The notes under the pieces: generated by a model
Database searches by the model: none
What the model was told of the DNA's origin: nothing
The model's input: the letters and a program-made list of their open reading frames with translations, nothing else
Virus record (IMG/VR): IMGVR_UViG_3300037205_000062
Location: 32,001-96,000 of that record
From: a virus
Reading direction: 5' to 3' (one strand)
Length of the DNA: 64,000 nt
Made by a program: the position numbers and the translations under genes
Part shown: positions 2,104-56,480 of the stretch, one piece after another
Position numbering within the stretch: the first letter of the stretch is position 1
Layout of the letters: every line of letters begins with the position of its first letter

Positions 2104-3864
2104 ATGTTAACAAAAATAATTACTTTATTGTTATTTATTACTTATTCAGTAATAGCATCGACTACAATACCCAATGAGTATTGGATTTCTCCCGTACCAA
2201 CAGGTAATATTGTTCCAATGGGTGGTACGATTGATAATCCATTAGACGGTTCAAATAATACTAATTTCGATTTGAATATGGGTCTAATCCCAGCAAATTC
2301 TACTATTCACTTATTAACAGGTACATTCCAAACTAAAGGATCGTGGCAAGGATATGGATTAAAGTCTGGACAGAAAGTATGCGGTAGTGGCATTGATAAT
2401 ACTATAGTCCAATTAGTAGCACCAACTTTTGTAGGAGGTTCAGGAGTATCAGTAATGGGAAATTTTGGTTCAGTTACTAACAATGAGATACAAGACTTAA
2501 CTATAGATTGTAATGTAAGTAATGTTTTAGATACATATAGTGGAGTTGGATTGATTGGTACAGAAAATAGTATAAGAAGAGTTAAGGTAATTAACTGCGG
2601 TAAATTTGGTGGCAATAGTGAGGCTTGGGGAATAGTGATAGCAAATTATTATTTACCAGATAGTATAGGAAATATTATAGAAGAATGTGAAGTATCTCAA
2701 TTCAGGGGTGGAGGAGGTATAACTAGTATAGCATTAGCAGGTGGTGGAGATAATTTTGGTAGTAATTCAGAACCAGCTCAAACTATATCTGGTATTATAA
2801 GAAATAATAAAGTTATATTAGTTAGTACAAATTATCCTATATATTCAAAAGGTTCATGGTTTGGTATCGGTTTAGGTGGTTGGCAGCATGATGTATTGAT
2901 TGAAGGCAATTATCTAGAAGGTTGTGACGTTGGCATACCTGGAGATACGGGTTGGGCACATAATGTAATAATTCAAAATAATCAAATACTGGATTGTGAT
3001 TACGGAGTAGAAGCTATAGGATTTGATAGAGTTAATATAACTATAGCCAATAATCATGTAAGGATATTAAGTTTCTTTAATAACTCAACTAATGTAGGAG
3101 CTGAACCATTTCCTCCCTGTGCATTCTATTTTTATCCAGGAACTATATATACTTCATTTACGAACATCTGGATAACAGGGAATGTAGTTGAATATGTAGC
3201 AGGTGTATCTAATGCAATCTGGCAAGGATTCGTAGCTGGCGGGGCATTTACTGGATTAAATGTCAGTGGTAATAGTTACGATAGCTCAATGAATTATAAT
3301 ATATTTACTTGGGCACCTTCTATTAATGTATCTAGTCATGATAATACAGATTTATTTGGAAATCCAATGCCAGGAATAGGTAATTATACTTTCAATGATG
3401 GGTCAGTAAGTATAGGAGGTAGTTTAACTGTCGGCGGAGGAATATCAGGTAATGGAATTAATATAACAAATCTTAATGCTAATAATATCATGAATGGTAT
3501 TATCGCATCTTCATTATTATCTGGAACCTATTCTAATATAGTTAATTTTTCAGCAAAAAATAATACTTTTACTGGAACTTATAATGGTATTTATTCTGGA
3601 AATGGATCAAATATAATTAGTTTGAATGCGTCGAATATATCCAAAGGAATATTACCATCTTTTGCTCTTTCAGGAGTGTATTCAAGTTCTGTAACTTTAA
3701 GTAATAATCAAAATTTATTTGTAGGTAAATTTAATGGAAATGGTAGTAATATTTCTAGTATCTCTTATAATTCAATGGTGGGTGGATTAACAACGAATAT
3801 TATTATTTCTTCAAATCAAATGTTGGTTTACACGAATGGTGGTTTATCAAATATTAAAAAATAA
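2104..3864 (+). CDS. Right-handed beta-helix protein with signal-peptide-like N-terminus and fibre-like C-terminal repeats
   Basis: IHLLTGTF..., GSGIDNTIVQL, IQDLTIDCN, repeated I.NN.I / IEGN turns, three GNGxNIxxL/I(NA)S repeats; N-terminus MLTKIITLLLFITYSVIAS. Confidence 0.65.
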   Translation: MLTKIITLLLFITYSVIASTTIPNEYWISPVPTGNIVPMGGTIDNPLDGSNNTNFDLNMGLIPANSTIHLLTGTFQTKGSWQGYGLKSGQKVCGSGIDNTIVQLVAPTFVGGSGVSVMGNFGSVTNNEIQDLTIDCNVSNVLDTYSGVGLIGTENSIRRVKVINCGKFGGNSEAWGIVIANYYLPDSIGNIIEECEVSQFRGGGGITSIALAGGGDNFGSNSEPAQTISGIIRNNKVILVSTNYPIYSKGSWFGIGLGGWQHDVLIEGNYLEGCDVGIPGDTGWAHNVIIQNNQILDCDYGVEAIGFDRVNITIANNHVRILSFFNNSTNVGAEPFPPCAFYFYPGTIYTSFTNIWITGNVVEYVAGVSNAIWQGFVAGGAFTGLNVSGNSYDSSMNYNIFTWAPSINVSSHDNTDLFGNPMPGIGNYTFNDGSVSIGGSLTVGGGISGNGINITNLNANNIMNGIIASSLLSGTYSNIVNFSAKNNTFTGTYNGIYSGNGSNIISLNASNISKGILPSFALSGVYSSSVTLSNNQNLFVGKFNGNGSNISSISYNSMVGGLTTNIIISSNQMLVYTNGGLSNIKK

Positions 3865-3873
3865 ATTATTTTA

Positions 3874-3891
3874 GTGTAATTTATATTATAT
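3874..3891 (+). promoter_or_regulatory. Representative of the recurring GTGTAA + AT-rich motif (putative late promoter)
   Basis: GTGTAA immediately upstream of genes at + 3874, 4223, 8465, 11717, 12812, 14953, 25296, 39894 and - 54443-54448, 61485-61490. Confidence 0.7.
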
Positions 3892-4209
3892 ATGTCAAAT
3901 GGAGTTGTTCTAATACCAATTAACAATGGAGTTCAGATAGTTTTGAGTGGTAGTAATAATATTAATAGCAGCCTTCAAAATTATGATTGGACTACTGGAT
4001 TGACTAGTGGACTAAATAGTCAATTTATAACTTATCCAGTTGTTATTAGCTCGATTCCAACTACAATTAATTCATTCTTTCAAAACTCCATAGATAATTT
4101 TACATATTTATATAGTACTTCTGGTATTACCACAAGTGGATTCTATATTAATTTTTCTGATTATTTAAAAAATACTGGATATATACTTAACACCGAAATG
4201 TTCGTTTAA
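3892..4209 (+). CDS. Small virion-associated protein, paralogous to the C-terminal domain of the next gene
   Basis: Shares SG.N.QFITYP...IDN...INFSDYLKNTGYIL with 4237..4839; preceded by the GTGTAA motif. Confidence 0.6.
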   Translation: MSNGVVLIPINNGVQIVLSGSNNINSSLQNYDWTTGLTSGLNSQFITYPVVISSIPTTINSFFQNSIDNFTYLYSTSGITTSGFYINFSDYLKNTGYILNTEMFV

Positions 4210-4815
4210 TAATTACATTTTTGTGTAATTATATTTATGGCATTATCATATGATCTTTCAATGGGGCAAGGTTCAGATTTTAGTCTTTCATTAAATTTGA
4301 CTGGTAGTAATGGTGCGCCCATTAATTTAAGTGGATATAATATAAGCGGTTATATAAAAAATTATTTTTCTGATACGGGTTTTTTATTAAATATTTCTCC
4401 AAGTATTGTTAATGCTGCTAGTGGCTTAATCAATATTTATATTCCAGCGGCCCAAACTATTAATTTACCTATTAATATGGGAAGATATAGTATAGGTATT
4501 TCTAATGGTTTTTCTACTTCTAATGTACTTTATGGAAAAGTATTCACTTATCCAAGCGTATTTGCTACTGAAGGTTTACCGTTTACACCAATTTCTATCA
4601 CTGGACAAGATTTCTATTTTTCTACTTCTTTACTAAGTGGAGTTAATACGCAATTTATAACATATCCTAATATTTTACAAAATGCTCCTGCATCCGTCGA
4701 TTGTGATATAGAAAATAATATTGATAATTATAGTTATATATTTAATTTATCGAACATAACAAATAGTGGTTTTCAAATTAATTTTTCTGATTATTTAAAA
4801 AATACTGGATATATA
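4147..4815 (+). repeat. 39-bp identical direct repeat (4147-4185 and 4777-4815)
   Basis: attaatttttctgattatttaaaaaatactggatatata occurs at the 3' end of both adjacent genes (encodes INFSDYLKNTGYI). Confidence 0.9.
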
Positions 4816-4846: not shown

Positions 4847-7800
4847 ATGCCTCAAAATTTTCGTGTCGCACAACTTATTTTAAGCGGACAAGATGTTAAT
4901 AATTTATTTTATCCATTAACTGGGAATCCAAGTGGATTTATATTACCCTCGCAAACTGGGGCATTTGGTGGATCAGCTAATACTGGACAATTAACAGGTA
5001 TTTTTTATCCTTTAATTAGTAATCCCGCTGGATATTTAACTGGTTTTAATTCTGGGTTATATACCTTAAATTCTCAAACAGGTATTTTTATAACCACAGG
5101 TCAAACAGGACAATTTTATTCTATTAATAATCCATCTGGTTTTATTACTGGATTTAATTCTGGGTTATATGTATTAAATAGTAATACAGGAAACTTCATT
5201 ACTACTGGACAAACTGGTATTTTCGCTACTAGTTCTAACTTAAATTTAACTGGAAGTGGTTTACAAGCTAATATAACTTCTCTTTCTGGATTTTTAACAT
5301 CTAATTATTCTACTACTGTAAGTATTTCTAATACTTATGCGACAATTACTAATTTGGCGTCTACTGGAAGTACTTTAGTTAGTTTAATAAATTCTTTATC
5401 TGGATTTAGCACTGGAACATTTATAACAACAGGACAAACTGGACAATTTGCCTCAACAAATAATTTATTATTAACTGGTTCTGGATTATCAGTTAGTATT
5501 AATTCTTTATCTGGTTATAGTAATAATACTTTTAGTACAATTTCTAATTTAGCAATTACTGGTTCGACTTTGGTTAGTTTAATTAATACACTTTCTGGTT
5601 ATGATTCGGGAGTTTATGTAAATAAAAATTCTACTGGAATTTTTATAACTACAGGGCAAACTGGAGCATTTTATGCCGCCTCAAATCCATTAGGTTTTTC
5701 TTTATTAACGGGTACAAACTATCATAGTGGAAATTCATTTAGTATTGGAAATGATATAATTTCTGGAAATGTATCAGGTTATATTTTTAGTGGAACCAAC
5801 TTTATTATTAATGGAAATTCAGTTATTACTAATAATCAAACTGGACAATTTTATCCAAATATAGGAAATCCATCTGGATTTATTATACCATCGCAAACTG
5901 GAGCATTTTATTCCTCATCAAATCCTAACGCTTATATTACGGCGGCAAGTTTAACCCCATATTATTTAAATACTAATCCTTCAGGTTTTATTACTGGATT
6001 TAATAGTGGTTTATATACCTTAAATTCTAACACAGGAAATTTTATAACAAATTCTCAAACAGGTATTTTTGTTACAACAGGTCAAACTGGTGCTTTTGGT
6101 GGTTCAGTTAATACGGGCCAACTAACAGGAGCATTCTATCCTCTTACTGGAAATCCTTCAGGATTTATTTTATCATCTCAAACTGGAAACTTTATTACTA
6201 ATAACCAAACAGGAATATTTGTAGTAACTGGTGCAACTGGAGCTTTCATTACTACTGGACAAACTGGAGCTTTTTATTCAACTTCAAATCCTAATAATTA
6301 TATTTCGACTGTAAATACTGGTTATTATACTGGTATTTTTTATCCATTAACGGGTAATCCTAGTGGTTTTATTTTACCGTCTCAGACTGGTGCTTTTTAT
6401 CCTAATGTTGGAAACCCAAGCGGATTCATATTACCAAGTCAAACTGGCGCATTTGCTTCAATTATTAATTTAGGTTTAACTGGTAATACTCTTTCTAATT
6501 GGACTGGAAATTCTACAGGATTATATTATCCATTAAATACAAATCCTAGTGGTTATATTACTGGATTTAACAGTGGACTATATACACTTAACAGTAATAC
6601 TGGTAATTTTATAACTACAAATCAAACAGGAGCCTTTCAATCAGCATTGGGATATATACCCTTAAATAAAGCGGGGGATTTTACTACTGGAATTTTTTAT
6701 TTAAGTGGAACACATTATTTTACATATACTGGAATAAATACAGGAATTTCTGGGATATTATTTATAGGCAATAATACTTTAGCAACTACTGGTAATCCAG
6801 TACAAAATTCAGCCTCATTAATATTTAGTGGTCAAGGATGGGTGAGTGGGGCAGGAGGAACTGGAAGTCAGGTATCTACTTGGGCTATATATAATAATCC
6901 AATTTCTGGAGGAACTTTATCTTCTGAATTAATTTTCGCATATTCATTAAATACTGGCATTTCTGGTGTTTTTAATTATATTCCACAAGTTATTTTCAAT
7001 ACATCAAGTGGATTAAATGTTTTTGGAAATATTTATCAAAATAATAATCAAGTAGTTACTATAAATCAAACTGGGCAATTCTATTCTATTAATAATCCAT
7101 CAGGATATATTACTGGGTTAAATACGGGTAATTTTATTACAAATTCTCAAACAGGTGTATTTTATCCTAATTTTGGTAATCCTAGTGGTTTTATATTACC
7201 AAGTCAAACAGGAAACTTTTTAACTTCTGTACCAACTGGAAATTTAACTGGAGCATTTTATCCTTTATCAAGTAATCCTTCTGGATATTTGACTGGTTTT
7301 AACTCTGGACTTTATACATTAAATAGTAATACGGGGAGCTTTATTACTACATCTCAAACAGGAGCTTTCTATCCAAATTTTGGAAACCCAAGTGGATTTA
7401 TTTTGCCTAGTCAAACTGGTGTATTTGTTACCACTAATCAAACTGGGGCATTTGGTGGAGGATCAACTCCTACTGGAAATTTAACTGGTGTTTTTTATCC
7501 ATTAACTGGAAACCCAAGCGGATTCATATTACCGTCACAGACGGGCGCTTTTTATGCCGCTTCAAATCCAAATAATTATATTACATCTTCTCAGATCGGG
7601 GGGGTACAGACTATTAATATAACTGGATTATCTATTTCTGGTAACTTAACTTTTACTGGTATAAATGGTATGTTACTAAGTACTGGAAGTAGCTCTATTA
7701 TAAGATTCGATGGTTCAAATTTTGCATTATCTTCTCAAACAGGTACATTTATTACAAGTAGCCAAACTGGGGCTTTTTATCCAAATGCAGGAAATCCAAG

Positions 7801-49463: not shown

Positions 49464-50669
49464 TTATTCATTTCCAGAATCTTTAAGCTGAGCTAAAGAT
49501 ACATATATCTTATTTTGTTGTATAGATATACTTTTGGCAAATACGGTATTATCTTCTTTTTTTTGTCCCTTTATAATAACAATATCATTAGCTTTAGGAA
49601 GAGTACCATTAATCTCTTTACATTCTTGTAAACTGTCATTAAATATCATCACGTTCATAGTACCTGTTTCGTCAGAAATTGAATACTTAGCATATTGACT
49701 TCCATTAGGATTTTTTTCGCTCTTATTTTTTGATAATCCAAGTTTTGGATTATCATCAACTATACCAACAAAAATACAATTAGTTTTATCTAATTCTCCA
49801 CTTAAATCATTTACTGAAATTAAAGAAGGAACATCATTAATAAATATATCAATAAGTTTAGTTTTCGTAGAATATCCTAATAAGGTTTTCTCATACCACC
49901 AATTAGCAAAATCTTGACAAATTTTATTTTTTTCATAGATTTCTTTGTATTTTTCCATCTTTTTCTTTATAGTTTCAAAACGCGATTCTTTAATTAAAAA
50001 TTTACTTTTTTCATCTTTTAATTCTTTAACCATAGCATTAACTAAAATAGGTAACTTATATTCATATTTTTCAGCATATGACATGGCTAATCTTTTTTCT
50101 TTTTCAGTTAATACGTTCCATAATTGGGCTTCATAAACTAAAAATACTCTATTTTTACCAAATTGTTCTAATGTGCCCGCTTGAATTAATGCGGAAACTA
50201 CACCTATAGTTAGTCCAGCTTGTTTAGCTGATTCAAATAATTCAAATTTATTAGCATGTTTTCTTTTAAAATTATTAAGTTTTTCAATAGTTTTTTCACT
50301 AATACCTTTAATAGATGATAAACCGAATCTAATATTTTTTCCTTCAATAGTGAAATCCATTTCAGAAAGAGTTAAACTTGGTGGTAATAATTCAATATTA
50401 AAATACTGCATTTCTTTATGAATTTTAGATATTTCGCCAATTGGGTCTGGTTCGTGTCTTGTCATCCTCAATAATGAAAGATAAAATTCTTTAGGATGGT
50501 TAAATTTTAAAAATACAGAAATAGCACTTAACGCACTATAAGAAAAACTATGGCTATTAGATGTAACCATACCCTCCGCATAAAAGTTGTGGTCTGGATG
50601 ATTAACTTCTAAATCTATAGTAGGTTTTATACCTAAAGATTTAATTGATTTTATTTTTAAAAGTTGCAT
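49464..50669 (-). CDS. dnaE: DNA polymerase III alpha C-terminal part preceded by a 38-aa C-intein
   Basis: IntC MQLLKIKSIKSLGIKPTIDLEV...HNFYAEGMVTSN, then extein SHSFSYS...LKFNHPKEFY, IRFGLSSIKGIS (HhH), ALIQAGTL, OB fold ISDETGTMNVMIF. Confidence 0.92.
   Translation of the reverse strand: MQLLKIKSIKSLGIKPTIDLEVNHPDHNFYAEGMVTSNSHSFSYSALSAISVFLKFNHPKEFYLSLLRMTRHEPDPIGEISKIHKEMQYFNIELLPPSLTLSEMDFTIEGKNIRFGLSSIKGISEKTIEKLNNFKRKHANKFELFESAKQAGLTIGVVSALIQAGTLEQFGKNRVFLVYEAQLWNVLTEKEKRLAMSYAEKYEYKLPILVNAMVKELKDEKSKFLIKESRFETIKKKMEKYKEIYEKNKICQDFANWWYEKTLLGYSTKTKLIDIFINDVPSLISVNDLSGELDKTNCIFVGIVDDNPKLGLSKNKSEKNPNGSQYAKYSISDETGTMNVMIFNDSLQECKEINGTLPKANDIVIIKGQKKEDNTVFAKSISIQQNKIYVSLAQLKDSGNE
50556..50669 (-). 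mobile_element. C-terminal half of a split intein (blocks F/G)
   Basis: TIDLEV..PDHNFYAEG.VTSN|S; terminal Asn codon at 50556-50558, +1 Ser. Confidence 0.92.
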
Positions 50670-50670
50670 A

Positions 50671-51246
50671 TTATAATTTAATAGAATTTTCTACTTGATT
50701 TCCAAATACATCCCATCCATTTGTTTGTTGACGTGCGAAAAGCTCCACCCTTGGAATATTACCACAAAGTTCAACAATTCTATTTCTTACTTCATCTGGT
50801 TTTTTACTATGTTGTTCTCTTGGGCTTTGAATTAAAGCTCTAACTTTACGATTTTTGACAAGTTTGGTAGCGTTTTTACCTTTAGTAGCCAACAAACATA
50901 ACTCTACTCCAGATTTAAGAGTATAAGTTCCCATAAAACATACTGGCTGATTTTTCTTGTTTAGCTTTTGCCAAACGAATCCAACGGTTTTGTAATCAAA
51001 TCCCCATTCTTTGATAACCTCGCAACACCTAGATAAATGGTAATCAGTTGTCTAGATAAATAGGATACAATCATCGTCAGCAATATTCTTAACTGGCAAC
51101 GCTTTAATATCTTCACTAGACATTACGGGATATGGCACTTTACGCATCAAACCTAGTCCAAAATGATTCTTTTCTGGAATAACAGTCATATCGTTATAAT
51201 ATGACCAAGGTGGGTCTGCATAAATTATATTATATTTTTTACTCAT
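50671..51246 (-). pseudogene. MT-A70-family adenine methyltransferase interrupted by one in-frame TAG (51052-51054)
   Basis: IIYADPPWSY...DCILFI*TTDYHL...KEWGFDYKTVGFVWQK...ELCLLATKG...HSKKPDEV...RVELFARQ...GWDVFGNQ reads in one frame. TAG sits where the family has Trp (LFLW). Confidence 0.88.
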
Positions 51247-51267
51247 ATTAAATTCAATTCCTATAGA

Positions 51268-51296
51268 ATAATATCACATCATTAGTTTACTGTCAA
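51268..51296 (-). promoter_or_regulatory. sigma70-type promoter for the MTase and IntC-dnaE-C
   Basis: TTGACA-N17-TATTAT. Confidence 0.75.
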
Positions 51297-52117
51297 GAGA
51301 TTTTGTATGTTTGATTTTTACAAATTCTAGCAATAGTTGAGATACTAACATTATAAAATTTAGCTATATTTGTAAAACTATCTCCACTTTTACTTCTTTG
51401 TCTAATATCAATAATTTCATTATCTTGAAATTTGGAAGCGTAATGTTCTGAACCATAATAAACTTTTAGGTTCAGTGATGGATGACTTAATCCAGTTTTT
51501 ACTGCATGTATATTATTTTGTTTAATAGTTACCCATTCTAAATTATCTATTCTATTGTCTGTTTTAATTCCATTTTTATGATTAATACAAGGTAAATTTT
51601 GTGGATTTGGTAAAAATGCTTGAGCGACTAATCTATGAATAAAATATTTTTTAATATTTTGTTTGTGTTTTATTTCTACCCTTAAATATCCATCTTTATC
51701 TAAATACGGAGTTAAAGTCTTACCCCCGTAAAATCTATTATTACCACATTTTCTAGGTAAACTAATAATAGTTCCTAGATTAGATATTTTGTATAATCCC
51801 TCAAAACCTAGAACGCCTCTGAATATTTCCTGTTTTTCATCGGTGACAATTTCTAAATTATTATCTAAAATTTCTTGAATAGATTTCATTTCCACATTAT
51901 TAGTAAGAAATTTGTGTTTAAGTGAACAAATAATTTCTCTATCATCTGATAAAATAATCTGAAATAACTCTTGTTCTCCGTATATTTTGTCTTTAACTTC
52001 TACTTGTATATTACATTGGTTAATAGCATCAAATGAAGTAATATTATCTCCAATATTGATTAAAGACAGTGGTTTATATCCATGTCGAGTAGTAATAATA
52101 GTGTCTGGATGCAAACA
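51293..52117 (-). mobile_element. N-terminal half of a split intein fused to a NUMOD4-HNH-HTH endonuclease
   Basis: Block A CLHPDTII starts at Cys504 (52117); block B IICSLKHKFLT; HNH domain follows in frame; no C-terminal splice motif in this ORF. Confidence 0.9.
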
Positions 52118-53626
52118 TTTATTAAAAGAATAGTCCGCGCTGGCTATAAGAGCATCCCAATAAAATTTTGCAGATTTTGGTATTCCTAATTTTTGCCCTT
52201 GATTATAAATAATATCCTTATATTTATTCATATCATCAATTTTCTTTTTACCGCAAGCACGACGAATTTGTTCGGCATCATCCAGCGTTAATTCAAAAAC
52301 TTCTTTGGCGATTTGCATCAGTGTCTCTTGATACAAAATAATACCACCAGTTTCAGCCATAATTTTCTTTAATTTATCGCTTTCTATATCAAAATTAGGC
52401 ACTTCTCCACTATTAGTATAATGTGCATAATCGTCAATAAATGCCATACTTCCAGGGCGAGCTAAGGCCAGAATAGCACTTAGTTCATTAAAATTATGTG
52501 GTTTGACTTTTTGAGTAGTTTTGAAACCGAGATCAGCTTCAATTTGGAATAATCCATGAGGATATTTAAGATTTTGTAAATGTTCATACGTTGATTTATC
52601 AGCTACATCAATATCTTCGACATTGATTTTTAACATCTTACACACATCATCTACTACAGATACTCCTCTAAGTCCTAAAATATCTACTTTAAGAGAAAAT
52701 AAAGACACTTGGTTCATGTCATATGAAGAAACCAAGTCTTTATCAGACGATAATTCTACTGGACAAATATCTTCTAGTTTGTCGTAAGAAATCATAATAC
52801 CAGAAGGATGTACTCCCTTATTTTTAATAAGGTCTTTTAACTTCATGGCTATATCATAAGTTTCTTTATTCGCATTACACCAATCTCTAAATTCACTAAC
52901 ACTCGCATAAGCTTTGTCTAGGTCTTCAATTTGTCCGTGTATTTTTGGAATCATGCTCGTAACATGAGTCATTTCTTCTTCTGGTTTTGCGCCAAAGATT
53001 TTGCCGACTTCTTTAATAACTAACTTAGAAGATAAAGTATTAAATGTAAGAATTTTAGCGGTCTTACCTTGGTATTTGTCGTTGATGTATTTTAGAACTT
53101 CTTGACGGCGATAGTAATCCACGTCGCAGTCGATGTCGGGGCAGAGTGAACCATCAAGATAATCTACTCCATTAATGGTTGTTTTTCTTGCTCTAATTTT
53201 AGATATAAATCTCTCAAAATATAATCCATATTTTATAGGATTGATTTTTGTTATGCCTATAAAAAATACAACTAAACTACCAGCGGCAGACCCTCTCCCA
53301 AGTCCAGTTGGTATATTGTTTTTACTACAAAAATTAATAATATCCCAAACCAAGAGAAGATAATCAGTAAATCCTAATTCTTTAATAATTTCCAATTCAT
53401 ATTTTACTCTCTCTGAATATTCTTTATATTCATTTGAATTCTTTTGTAAATTTAATTTCTTAAAACCAATTAAACATAAATGTCTTAAAAAATCAAAATT
53501 AGACATGTCTTTTTCAATAGAGAATTGTTTTTTATATTCCTCGGTGACAATAAATTCTGGTAGTCTAACCCCAAGAATAGGTATTTTAATTGACTCAAAT
53601 TGCTCAATAAATTCAGTTGGTTTCAT
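51293..53626 (-). CDS. dnaE: DNA polymerase III alpha catalytic part + N-intein + NUMOD4-HNH endonuclease
   Basis: GRGSAAGSLV, FERF, PDIDCDVD, GVHPSG, KVDILGL, GLFQIE, RPG, ILYQE, ADYSFNK|CLHPDT..., then YKISNLG, IHRLVAQAFL, INHKNGIKTDNRIDNLEW. Confidence 0.93.
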   Translation of the reverse strand: MKPTEFIEQFESIKIPILGVRLPEFIVTEEYKKQFSIEKDMSNFDFLRHLCLIGFKKLNLQKNSNEYKEYSERVKYELEIIKELGFTDYLLLVWDIINFCSKNNIPTGLGRGSAAGSLVVFFIGITKINPIKYGLYFERFISKIRARKTTINGVDYLDGSLCPDIDCDVDYYRRQEVLKYINDKYQGKTAKILTFNTLSSKLVIKEVGKIFGAKPEEEMTHVTSMIPKIHGQIEDLDKAYASVSEFRDWCNANKETYDIAMKLKDLIKNKGVHPSGIMISYDKLEDICPVELSSDKDLVSSYDMNQVSLFSLKVDILGLRGVSVVDDVCKMLKINVEDIDVADKSTYEHLQNLKYPHGLFQIEADLGFKTTQKVKPHNFNELSAILALARPGSMAFIDDYAHYTNSGEVPNFDIESDKLKKIMAETGGIILYQETLMQIAKEVFELTLDDAEQIRRACGKKKIDDMNKYKDIIYNQGQKLGIPKSAKFYWDALIASADYSFNKCLHPDTIITTRHGYKPLSLINIGDNITSFDAINQCNIQVEVKDKIYGEQELFQIILSDDREIICSLKHKFLTNNVEMKSIQEILDNNLEIVTDEKQEIFRGVLGFEGLYKISNLGTIISLPRKCGNNRFYGGKTLTPYLDKDGYLRVEIKHKQNIKKYFIHRLVAQAFLPNPQNLPCINHKNGIKTDNRIDNLEWVTIKQNNIHAVKTGLSHPSLNLKVYYGSEHYASKFQDNEIIDIRQRSKSGDSFTNIAKFYNVSISTIARICKNQTYKIS

Positions 53627-54434
53627 TTGCTTTTAATAATCTAAAAATTTCTTCAAATTTACCTTTTTTTCTTTTAAGGAAAATCGAAGCGTCATTATAA
53701 AGATAATAGTATATCTTTTGTATTTTGTCAATCTTATTCCCTCCAATACTTAAATAACATAATTTTTTATTATCCTGCTCCAAAGATAACTTTAAAAATG
53801 AAATTGATGATTCTATATTTTCCCCAAGTATGTTTTGGATAGATTGGTTGAACGGTATGGTGCTAATAAATGAAGTTCTCCATTTTATATAACCATATTT
53901 CTTATCTATACTATAATTAATAGAACCATCTCCATCAAAAAATCCCCTAATAAAATGTGGCAATAAATTTTTTGGAACCTGTTCTAAAGTTGGAAATTTT
54001 AATGTTAGACTTTTCTTATGCCCACATCCCTGCTTTAATAAATCATTATATAACTGTTTGTTATTGATACAAAATCTCATATAACCTCTATCATTTACGA
54101 ATGCATGGGCAGAACCTATTGCTTTTTTAAAATCTTTTAAAATATGAAAATCTTTTTTATGTAAAGTTAATTTCATAGAATTATGAGTAATTGACCCATC
54201 TGCATAAAGAAATCCAAGAAAATAAGCCTTTGCCTCGTTATCTATTTTAGAAAAAAAACTATAGTCACAATCTTTAACTATGTGAGATTTTGATAAATCT
54301 CTAATTGATATATTATTACGTCGAAACATAGTATGAATCCATGCTGAATTCCATCCATATTTTTTCCCTAATTGTTGTAAAGATAGACCTTTATTATAAT
54401 CTTCTTCTAAAATTTTAAGTTCTTGTTGTGTCAT
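53613..54434 (-). CDS. Free-standing LAGLIDADG homing endonuclease
   Basis: AYFLGFLYADGSI and HFIRGFFDGDGSI motifs, N-terminal HTH; overlaps the dnaE start. Confidence 0.9.
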   Translation of the reverse strand: MTQQELKILEEDYNKGLSLQQLGKKYGWNSAWIHTMFRRNNISIRDLSKSHIVKDCDYSFFSKIDNEAKAYFLGFLYADGSITHNSMKLTLHKKDFHILKDFKKAIGSAHAFVNDRGYMRFCINNKQLYNDLLKQGCGHKKSLTLKFPTLEQVPKNLLPHFIRGFFDGDGSINYSIDKKYGYIKWRTSFISTIPFNQSIQNILGENIESSISFLKLSLEQDNKKLCYLSIGGNKIDKIQKIYYYLYNDASIFLKRKKGKFEEIFRLLKANETN

Positions 54435-54469: not shown

Positions 54470-54703
54470 TTATTTGTTATTTCTTACTTCTACAAAATTA
54501 CTTGTTGTAAAATCATTCAATATATGATTATTTTTATCGAAAAGAGTCCATCTATTTCCATTAACTTGATAGTGGTCGCATTGATAAGTTATTAATTGTC
54601 CCCAATGGTGTTGCCAAACCGTATAATGGTTTTCATTCCCACATCCTAATATAACAAAAGATATAATTAAAAATATACAAATATATAAAATTTTATTTTT
54701 CAT
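54470..54703 (-). CDS. Small putative lipoprotein
   Basis: MKNK + hydrophobic core + lipobox ILGC. Confidence 0.6.
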   Translation of the reverse strand: MKNKILYICIFLIISFVILGCGNENHYTVWQHHWGQLITYQCDHYQVNGNRWTLFDKNNHILNDFTTSNFVEVRNNK

Positions 54704-55347
54704 AGTTCAATCTGAAACTTGAGTTTATCCCATACCGCCTTATTTATCTCAAGGTCGTAAGTTGCATTATGTAATTTGCTTTCGTCTAAATCAATTCCAA
54801 ATTCTTTAGCTAAAGTTGATAAACTAGTTTTTATTCCTTTGACAACAGCATTACTATAACGATATTGATAATCAATAAAACTTCCTTGTTTTGAATTATA
54901 GGGAACTCCCATTTTAATACCTTGGGCAATAGCTTTAGTATCAATGATTTTTGGTAATATCCATTTCCAAGGAACTCCCATAAATTCAGCATAACCTTTT
55001 AATAAATATATATCAAATCTTAAAATATTATGCCCCATAATATAATCGCAATTTTTTAGATCATTCCAGAATATAGAAAAGGCTTCTTTGGGTTGAATAG
55101 CGATTCTTTTATGTTCTTCTTGATTAAAATGAGTAATTCGCGCAGCTTCAAATCCTATTTTTAAATTAGGTGCAACTTTACTCCAATCAATTCTAATATC
55201 TTTTTCACTTGTATTATTACCTTGAAAATTAAGAATACTTACTTGCCAAGGTCTATTAAATCTAAATGAAAGATTCAAATTAAATGTCTCCACGTCGCAC
55301 AAGCAGAACTTAACTTCTTTGTTATATCTAAGTAAATTACCATTCAT
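54700..55347 (-). CDS. DEDDh 3'-5' exonuclease (Pol III epsilon-like)
   Basis: CDVET (ExoI), GHNILRFD (ExoII), IIDTK, HNATYD (ExoIII). Confidence 0.88.
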   Translation of the reverse strand: MNGNLLRYNKEVKFCLCDVETFNLNLSFRFNRPWQVSILNFQGNNTSEKDIRIDWSKVAPNLKIGFEAARITHFNQEEHKRIAIQPKEAFSIFWNDLKNCDYIMGHNILRFDIYLLKGYAEFMGVPWKWILPKIIDTKAIAQGIKMGVPYNSKQGSFIDYQYRYSNAVVKGIKTSLSTLAKEFGIDLDESKLHNATYDLEINKAVWDKLKFQIEL

Positions 55348-55674: not shown

Positions 55675-56445
55675 TTATTTTATTAATTTTTCAAAATTAA
55701 AAGTATCACTACATAGATGCGATAATTCAGGACGTTCACATGTAGATTTTTTTGCCGAACCTCTTGCGTGAATACATCGAAAAGTAAGATAAGCGGGAAA
55801 ATCTTCGGGCTTATTATAATAGACGCTTTGGGTATCAAGAGTTTCAAAATTATTTTTGGCGCAATAATCTTCTACTTTTTCTAATAAAATATCATCAAAA
55901 GGTATATCATTAGTTTCCTTAAAAAATATAGGTTTAGTAAATGTAAAATCTGGAATATGTTTATGACTTTCTAAATTATTAAGATGTAAAAAAGAATCAT
56001 AAAATGGCACAGTTAACATAAGATTTGCTGTCCATAAACGTTTTAAATTTTTGAAATCTATAATTGGATAATAATAAAAACCATCTTGTGCCGCAAATGT
56101 CCAAATTTTAATTAAATCTTTATATCCTTTTGTATTCTTGACGAAAATAATATATTTAGCTTGTTTTGCGTCACTATCATCGTTCTTAATTAAGACATCG
56201 TCTGTAATTGAGATACGAAGACCGAAAATTAATTTAATATTATTATTTGCGGCATTTTTACTAGCTTCAAGCAAAGAACTTACATTATCTTCGACAAGAG
56301 TAAGGGTTTTTTGATTATGTTTTTGTAAAATATAGAAAATAGAGTTTTCATTAGGTTTCTTTTCTTTATTAAAGGGGGTATCTAAATTAAAAATTGATTT
56401 TCCAATTGAATAATGCGATTTCCACAAAGCAAGGACTTTATCCAT
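55675..56445 (-). CDS. dnaE: Stand-alone PHP domain of DNA polymerase III alpha
   Basis: KSHYSIGKS, LVEDN, IKLIFGLRI, VKNTKGYKDLIKI...A..DGFYYYPIID match the DnaE N-terminal PHP domain. Confidence 0.82.
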   Translation of the reverse strand: MDKVLALWKSHYSIGKSIFNLDTPFNKEKKPNENSIFYILQKHNQKTLTLVEDNVSSLLEASKNAANNNIKLIFGLRISITDDVLIKNDDSDAKQAKYIIFVKNTKGYKDLIKIWTFAAQDGFYYYPIIDFKNLKRLWTANLMLTVPFYDSFLHLNNLESHKHIPDFTFTKPIFFKETNDIPFDDILLEKVEDYCAKNNFETLDTQSVYYNKPEDFPAYLTFRCIHARGSAKKSTCERPELSHLCSDTFNFEKLIK

Positions 56446-56451
56446 ATAAGA

Positions 56452-56480
56452 ATAATACTATAAGTTTTACTTTTTGTCAA
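56452..56480 (-). promoter_or_regulatory. sigma70-type promoter, probably leaderless
   Basis: TTGACA-N17-TATTAT, 6 nt before ATG at 56445. Confidence 0.8.

Follow-up and report, generated by a model that had tools for sequence, protein, structure and literature searches.

The window analysed here, a 64,000-nucleotide stretch of phage DNA (positions 32,001 to 96,000 of IMG/VR record IMGVR_UViG_3300037205_000062), contains a dnaE gene in two pieces, each of which carries one half of an intein. The source record is 162.9 kb long, with an estimated completeness of 79% and a GC content of about 29%. From the conserved motifs described below we consider it likely that the locus encodes a functional naturally split class 1 intein in DnaE, whose homing endonuclease is now part of the N-terminal intein half (IntN). 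Trans-splicing is probably functional. The layout is a variant of the fractured genes described by Dassa et al. (2009, PMC2677866) and not a new kind of system. An MT-A70 methyltransferase gene, which is probably a later insertion specific to this phage and by now a pseudogene, lies between the stop codon of the nuclease and the start of the C-terminal intein half (IntC).

A first-pass annotation, made by a model from the letters alone, had proposed a naturally split DnaE intein at positions 49464-53626. All parts could be located on the minus strand, with an IntN of 94 amino acids (aa) and an IntC of 38 aa. The TGA of the 777-aa open reading frame (ORF) is separated by 623 nt from the 401-aa ORF, and the two lie in different frames. 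The following features were assigned:

51293-53626, minus strand: ORF of DnaE core, IntN and HNH endonuclease, 777 aa, ending with TGA at 51293-51295
52118-53626, minus strand: DnaE N-extein (palm/NTPase and fingers), residues 1-503, ending with ...ADYSFNK; Pfam DNA_pol3_alpha E 4.5e-64, DNA_pol3_finger E 1.5e-32
51836-52117, minus strand: IntN, 94 aa (Cys504 to Glu597), net charge -8, starting with CLHPDT and ending with ...EILDNNLEIVTDE
51296-51835, minus strand: NUMOD4-HNH-HTH module, residues 598-777, in frame with IntN; Pfam and I-HmuI matches
about 51674-51829, minus strand: NUMOD4, Pfam E 1.8e-10
about 51512-51646, minus strand: HNH, Pfam HNH_3 E 1.9e-9
about 51311-51418, minus strand: HTH, weak Pfam match
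49464-50669, minus strand: ORF of IntC and C-extein, 401 aa, beginning with MQLLKIKSIKSLGIKPTIDLEVNHPDHNFYAEGMVTSN followed by SHSFSY
50556-50669, minus strand: IntC, 38 aa, with a Lys-rich start (+4 over the first 16 residues) and the end VTSN
49464-50555, minus strand: DnaE C-extein from Ser+1 (SHSFSY...), HhH and OB domains, stop codon included; Pfam HHH_6 E 1e-16, OB fold E 7e-5

The NTPase and finger domains of Pol III alpha were matched over their full length in the 777-aa ORF (Pfam), and the catalytic motifs PDIDCD and KVDILGL can be read in the translated N-extein. Residues 39-397 of the IntC/C-extein ORF could be aligned to intein-less relatives. The joined exteins give YSFNKSHS, as had been predicted, and this is identical to the sequence of the intein-less relatives. 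Likewise, the proposed insertion four residues downstream of the cyanobacterial site AEY/CFN and the use of Ser+1 can be read directly in the translations (YSFNK/SHS; the slash marks the insertion point).

The two halves reside on separate polypeptides, each joined to its own extein, and together they have the characteristics of a class 1 intein: an N-terminal Cys nucleophile, the block B motif SxxH, a terminal Asn followed by Ser+1, and the Hint fold. In the following, L numbers denote loci with genomic context, found by pattern scans of viral and metagenome contigs, and P numbers denote metagenomic proteins. Cys504 (Cys1) and Ser568-Leu-Lys-His571 of block B are invariant in an alignment of nine sequences (P0001-P0008 and P0012). 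Block F/G of IntC reads DLEVNHPDHNFYAEGMVTSN and is followed by Ser+1; here D19, H27, N28, F29, S37 and N38 are invariant in five loci. The splicing motifs are kept across divergent homologues, and the intein arrangement is therefore not due to chance. Furthermore, complementary charges of the N- and C-terminal halves were described for natural split inteins (PMC2677866), and the acidic IntN (-8) and the basic start of IntC (+4) fit this pattern.

Comparisons with known inteins gave a consistent picture. IntN alone matched cyanobacterial DnaE inteins (phmmer, E 1.9e-5) and also gp41-1 in the PDB, and IntC alone aligned with the extreme C-termini of four inteins, Spl DnaX (E 0.005), VidaL, Mxe GyrA and gp41-1. 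In the AlphaFold model of IntN-HNH (pLDDT 88), IntN resembles the IntN chain of Npu DnaE (4qfq_A) with TM 0.77 and a root mean square deviation of 2.3 Å. The locus L009 contains a contiguous mini-intein of 132 aa at the same site, collinear with IntN and IntC; it aligns end to end with gp41-1, its best PDB match (E 1.7e-9), and with DnaE inteins. The intein itself may share common descent with gp41-1 and the cyanobacterial DnaE inteins, its nearest solved relatives. An independent split event, as assumed in the first-pass annotation, is made plausible by the interleaving of contiguous with split forms in the phage family; the matches of IntN to gp41-1 and to the cyanobacterial inteins limit this claim.

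Fusion of IntN with the nuclease

Neither a stop nor a start codon is present between IntN and HNH in the window ORF, and the same was found for 12 other fused homologues. The nuclease is thus fused in frame to IntN, as had been proposed, and would therefore leave the spliced protein attached to it. I-HmuI (1u3e) aligned from its residue 4 to the window nuclease with an E value of 1.6e-10, and Foldseek on the model gave 3.9e-8. The architecture is I-HmuI-like, with NUMOD4 and HNH_3 above the Pfam cut-offs and weak matches for the HTH. The HNH residues H683, N695, N704/705 and H707 are invariant in the nine-sequence alignment.

Free-standing HNH homologues begin ((M)KEIWKxIxGYEG...) exactly where the plain split IntN ends, and the HNH ORF of the window ends at their natural C-terminus. 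Because these start and end points match, the fused ORF is composed of a complete IntN and a complete nuclease of the free-standing type with a natural C-terminus. In the three fused relatives with context, L008, L089 (same contig as L248) and L249, the stop codon of the N-terminal ORF aligns with that of the window, directly after the nuclease. The start of IntC overlaps the HNH stop by 16 nt in L008 and L249 and lies 11 nt downstream of it in L089, always in another frame.

The fusion is not a single case but belongs to a recurrent lineage. IntN-HNH is encoded by at least 12 other metagenomic DnaE genes. Ten of the proteins with this architecture (P0002-P0008, P0012, P0216 and P0217) have 770-1032 aa and 34-50% identity over IntN-HNH. 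A profile search against 1.8 billion representatives returned tandem HNH proteins; the profile covered HNH only, as the IntN columns fell under the half-occupancy rule.

Two further proteins point to half-fused split inteins in host genes other than dnaE. P0231 consists of the N-terminal part of a terminase large subunit, an Intein_splicing match that is weak and does not reach the cut-off (E 0.0015), and HNH, after which it ends; it is probably a TerL-IntN-HNH protein and would represent the IntN-HNH fusion in another host gene. P0245 is a mirror fusion with NUMOD4-HNH from residue 1, a C-terminal intein match of 33.0 bits (cut-off 35.8) ending in ...VLVHN/C, and a ribonucleotide reductase barrel. 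Neither locus was found in viral contigs, and the partner ORFs were not seen. Dassa et al. (2009, PMC2677866) proposed a model in which the gene of a free-standing nuclease, residing inside an intein, could be stripped of its flanks and turn into a domain of the intein. Step IIIa of the model predicts two kinds of half-fusion, and both seem to exist. No description of half-fused split inteins was found in the literature searched, the coverage of which is incomplete, so that an earlier description is possible.

Intein states at the DnaE site and possible mobility

The finger region of PolIII-alpha is a hot spot of intein insertion, several sites falling within a stretch of 75 residues (Novikova et al., PMC4760082), and Dassa et al. 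(2009, PMC2677866) reported three fractured phage DnaE loci at non-cyanobacterial sites, one of them with a Vsr-like nuclease. At YSFNK/SH the large majority of the relatives is intein-less. Comparison with related phages for contiguous alleles yielded contiguous mini-inteins in L009, P0016, P0017 and P0033 and in gp103 of the cultured Rhodococcus phage Grayson (...YSFNK/CLAEDT...THN/SHSVAY), in which PHP is a separate gene. Plain split inteins with a 27-nt spacer are present in L005 and L088, split inteins with a sense NUMOD3/DUF559 (Vsr-like) gene in L006, L007 and L169, and split inteins with an antisense GIY-YIG-like ORF in L090 and L093, the motifs of the latter being read in translation only. 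In addition, the full-length PHP-containing DnaEs P0042, P0049, P0052 and P0063 show FNK/C. The site is not unique to the window intein, contrary to the first impression: it is occupied by contiguous inteins in Grayson gp103 and in many DnaEs from metagenomes, as well as by split forms accompanied by free-standing nuclease genes. One DnaE site thus shows the whole series of states, from empty over contiguous mini-intein, plain split intein and split intein with a Vsr-like or GIY-YIG gene to HNH welded to IntN.

The antisense GIY-YIG-like ORF of L090 has 287 aa (6109-6972, minus strand) and separates the two halves of an intein that belongs to another split lineage. In the plain split inteins L005 (7971-8000) and L088 (5502-5531) the spacers, reading …GATGGAA(T/C)ATTTAAA…, resemble the 3' end of the fused HNH ORFs (…TGGAAACATATTTGA). 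As a short AT-rich match they may be, at best, the scar of an HNH deletion.

The distribution of the fused alleles was compared between exteins and intein. In the extein tree (N-exteins of 500 residues) the 11 fused alleles are scattered; 11 changes are needed, each of them required by a well-supported branch, and this does not improve on shuffled labels. The same 11 alleles need four changes in the tree of the IntN segment, a value as low being reached in none of 500 shuffles, and ten of them fall within one group of 12. The exteins of P0016 (mini-intein) and P0027 (empty) are nearly identical. For L089, which is fused, and L090, which has a different IntN lineage and the antisense nuclease, the DNA is 80-87% identical over flanks of about 9 kb. 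The last ~450 nt of the N-extein are an exception with 49-57% identity, and the similarity is restored as soon as the C-extein begins. This divergent flank of ~450 nt resembles a tract of co-conversion. Since the site is empty in most relatives, targets for homing exist. Incongruent trees, a divergent flank and abundant empty alleles would together be the pattern expected of an element that is still homing.

Proposed mechanism, rival explanations and known systems

In the proposed mechanism, both halves would be made from promoters of the same class, the IntC half from a promoter brought by the methyltransferase cassette. The acidic IntN and the basic start of IntC would associate and fold, and Cys1 and Ser+1 would drive trans-splicing to a continuous DnaE with ...YSFNKSHS.... 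The released two-chain complex of IntN-HNH and IntC would then share its topology with canonical HNH-bearing inteins, except for one nick in the backbone. This complex, or the unspliced precursor, could cut the intein-less dnaE of co-infecting relatives, and repair after cleavage would copy the whole cassette into the intein-less allele. The simplest origin would be a fractured gene, composed of a split intein and a free-standing nuclease gene, after loss of the IntN stop codon and the spacer. The fused form would correspond to the half-way stage of step IIIa in the model of Dassa et al., stabilised and spreading.

Several observations weigh against a functional and mobile split intein. The Pfam Intein_splicing match of 19.4 bits is below the cut-off of 35.8, and the penultimate intein residue is Ser instead of His. 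The active Npu and Ssp DnaE inteins likewise have a penultimate Ser (terminal Ser-Asn). The 180-aa domain at the C-terminus of IntN could slow the association with IntC. In the window the end of the HNH protein, …TYKIS, is unlike that of the family, …WKH(V/I). The basal branch of the fused IntN group is weak (65/88), and IntN is short. Finally, the in-frame TAG of the methyltransferase gene precedes the IntC start, which is tightly coupled to that gene, and could lower the translation of IntC.

If the fused HNH were a decaying or domesticated remnant without homing, the scattered distribution would reflect ordinary recombination and repeated loss, and the fusion a neutral loss of a stop codon. 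The cycle model, as cited in 10.1101/2025.01.02.630785, expects homing endonucleases to decay once they are fixed; the atypical C-terminus of the window nuclease and the spacers of L005 and L088, a hint of HNH loss, would agree with this. We regard such a remnant as unlikely, as the HNH motif residues are invariant in nine aligned fused proteins, the nuclease module has its full length in 12 fused homologues and no frameshifted or truncated HNH was seen among the complete ORFs. Moreover, the intein-less targets are the majority allele, so that selection for homing should persist, and the tract resembling co-conversion adjoins the site. Another explanation is that the intein halves no longer splice and only hold two DnaE fragments together non-covalently, as in Aeh1 NrdA. 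The NrdA of phage Aeh1, fractured by a homing endonuclease gene, assembles without ligation (PMC3045599; discussed in PMC2677866), hence phage enzymes can work as assembled fragments, and this clade already encodes its PHP domain in an ORF of its own, without intein. Nevertheless, a purely structural role seems quite improbable for the window intein. The residues of the splicing chemistry (Cys1, SxxH of block B, Asp and His of block F, the terminal Asn and Ser+1) are kept at 36-50% identity. The break falls inside the FNKSH motif of the fingers, which is strictly conserved and would hardly tolerate a free end and an appendage of 130 aa.

A contiguous intein in vivo, with the split simulated by misassembly or sequencing error or bypassed by programmed frameshifting or stop read-through, is very unlikely. 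The 16-nt ORF overlaps in L008 and L249 would suit it, as would the rarity of TAG as a stop codon (one of 43 long ORFs), one such codon being inside the methyltransferase gene. However, the stop is found at the same aligned position in nine homologues and in the three relatives with context, the ORF ends at the natural end of the nuclease, no protein with both HNH and HhH was detected among hits of up to 1360 aa, and the same ORFs are present in four to five contigs. Furthermore, a gene of 576 nt and a promoter lie between the halves in the window, and no suppressor tRNA gene was found there. A -1 frameshift joining the ORFs of L008 and L249 was ruled out, as no canonical slippery heptamer was seen at the overlaps, the ORFs of L089 are 11 nt apart and a whole gene lies between those of the window.

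The putative split intein with a tethered nuclease shares several properties with the fractured genes of Dassa et al. (2009, PMC2677866), in which a free-standing nuclease gene lies between the split-intein halves with spacers of 27-51 nt. In both cases a split intein interrupts a conserved replication enzyme at the point where the endonuclease is usually inserted, and the two halves lie on one strand at one locus of a phage, with complementary charges and a homing nuclease between them. Unlike these genes, the window has neither a stop codon after IntN nor a spacer nor a nuclease start, and a free-standing endonuclease gene with non-coding spacers is thereby missing at the locus. IntN and HNH form one polypeptide, and the methyltransferase cassette parts the nuclease from IntC. 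The PolB of MIJ3 is fractured with a free-standing HNH (PMC6892783). Canonical HNH-containing inteins carry the nuclease in frame (Dalgaard 1997, as cited in 10.1101/2025.01.02.630785). With them (example P0059) the window intein shares the order Hint-N, NUMOD4-HNH, Hint-C and the position of the nuclease at the conserved insertion point, whereas in the window a TGA follows HNH-HTH and Hint-C resides in a separate ORF fused to the C-extein.

The cyanobacterial split DnaE intein occupies PolIII-alpha site a (PMC4760082), with native Npu exteins AEY/CFN (PMC8484483). The Ssp and Npu DnaE inteins have the host protein, the finger motif and the polarity of acidic IntN and basic IntC in common with the window intein and are among its nearest solved relatives by sequence and fold. 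In contrast, the window intein is not inserted at site a, but four residues downstream (FNK/SH), and it uses Ser+1 instead of Cys+1. Its halves are adjacent and not at distant loci, it has an attached nuclease, and it is phage-borne and apparently still mobile. The gp41-1 split intein, with the native C-extein SSSGV and Ser+1 (PMC12245125), likewise originates from a phage fractured gene. It differs by its location in a helicase gene, its reversed charge polarity (Dassa et al. 2009, PMC2677866) and its free-standing homing endonuclease gene. Grayson gp103 and related actinophage DnaEs share the identical insertion site and the separate PHP gene; unlike the window intein, gp103 is a single polypeptide without nuclease and belongs to a distant phage group. 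The family does offer divergent Ser+1 split pairs, for which a use in protein ligation had been suggested. Since Ser+1 split inteins are already known (gp41-1), the value as a tool is modest and incremental.

The fused forms would represent an intermediate of the model of Dassa et al. with phylogenetic signs of continued movement, which makes the question of intein-nuclease co-evolution testable. The family is also a natural test whether a large cargo at the C-terminus of IntN is compatible with fast trans-splicing. More tentatively, and with doubt prevailing, half-fused split inteins (IntN-HNH here and probably in a terminase, the mirror form HNH-IntC in a ribonucleotide reductase) could be a stable, selected and mobile class instead of fleeting accidents, in which tethering couples the nuclease to the host gene. 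If so, tethering would tie the dosage and timing of the nuclease to the host gene. The nuclease might become active only when IntC has associated or when trans-splicing has released it, and would then be a naturally conditional homing endonuclease. Half-fused forms would then be living intermediates by which inteins gain nuclease domains from free-standing genes.

Methyltransferase cassette, promoters and neighbouring genes

Two features were assigned between the HNH stop codon and IntC:

50671-51246, minus strand: MT-A70 N6-adenine methyltransferase gene with an in-frame TAG at 51052-51054; its TAA ends 1 nt before the IntC ATG
51268-51296, minus strand: promoter-like TTGACA-N17-TATTAT (11/12 match), heading the methyltransferase cassette; the -35 hexamer overlaps the HNH stop codon

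The methyltransferase gene between the halves, noted in the first-pass annotation, is thus present; it carries a nonsense codon, is an insertion specific to the window and is not part of the general layout. Read through the TAG, the gene matches the whole MT-A70 profile (Pfam E 1.3e-30) and contains DPPW; an intact ORF with the full domain and DPPW is obtained in this form only. At the TAG position all of the 15 aligned homologues have Trp. By exact-sequence look-up both fragments were found in five contigs and the read-through form in none. The downstream fragment of 87 aa still ends 1 nt before the IntC ATG. No tRNA genes, hence no suppressor tRNA, were found in the window. Recoding of TAG was ruled out by the invariant Trp, the other long ORFs being intact under table 11, and the missing tRNA gene in the window. 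As no tRNA gene is found there and the other ORFs are intact, a TGG-to-TAG nonsense mutation, which is probably recent, would be the simplest reading. In the three fused relatives with context (L008, L089 and L249) no gene lies between nuclease and IntC, and the MT-A70 insertion is therefore specific to the window phage. In L169, the locus with a split intein and a Vsr-like gene, two tandem MT-A70 genes (3426-4528) lie directly downstream of the IntC-dnaE-C ORF, one of them 74% identical to that of the window. These neighbours suggest a local rearrangement as the source of the insertion.

Exact TTGACA-N17-TATTAT sites were found four times in the 64 kb (0.17 expected), all on the minus strand, at 56452-56480, 53703-53731, 51268-51296 and 34463-34491. 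Three of the four head the PHP, dnaE-core and methyltransferase/IntC units. The sites probably belong to one promoter class, and the shared pattern offers a plausible route to independent but co-regulated expression of the DnaE pieces. Among the window ORFs of at least 120 aa, 36 end with TAA, six with TGA and one with TAG. A Shine-Dalgarno-like 4-mer was detected upstream of three of the 43 long ORFs, which suggests a host with little Shine-Dalgarno dependence. The missing motif before IntC means little, because so few long ORFs have one.

By exact-sequence look-up across collections the 777-aa ORF was found in four contigs and the 401-aa ORF in five, which are possibly not independent assemblies. 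In a DNA search against cultured phages the HNH segment was the only match. The PHP domain of DnaE is a separate ORF of 256 aa without intein (55675-56445, minus strand). The separate gene is kept across the clade and in Rhodococcus phage Grayson, with the exception of P0007, in which PHP is fused to the core. Between PHP and the dnaE core lies a DEDDh-like exonuclease ORF (54700-55347, minus strand), its motifs being read in translation and Pfam giving only a weak RNase_H_2 match.

The start of the dnaE core is overlapped by 14 nt by a free-standing LAGLIDADG endonuclease ORF of 273 aa (53613-54434, minus strand), which is a second selfish element in the dnaE locus. It was not found at the equivalent position in the relatives examined (L002, L005, L007, L008, L089 and L249). 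Beyond the window, the large ORF L329 (G000:C1:10950-14387) matches TerL_ATPase weakly (E 0.0018, below the cut-off) and probably encodes the large subunit of the terminase; it contains a canonical contiguous intein with a LAGLIDADG domain. Together with the DnaE intein, this gives the phage at least two inteins that differ in architecture.

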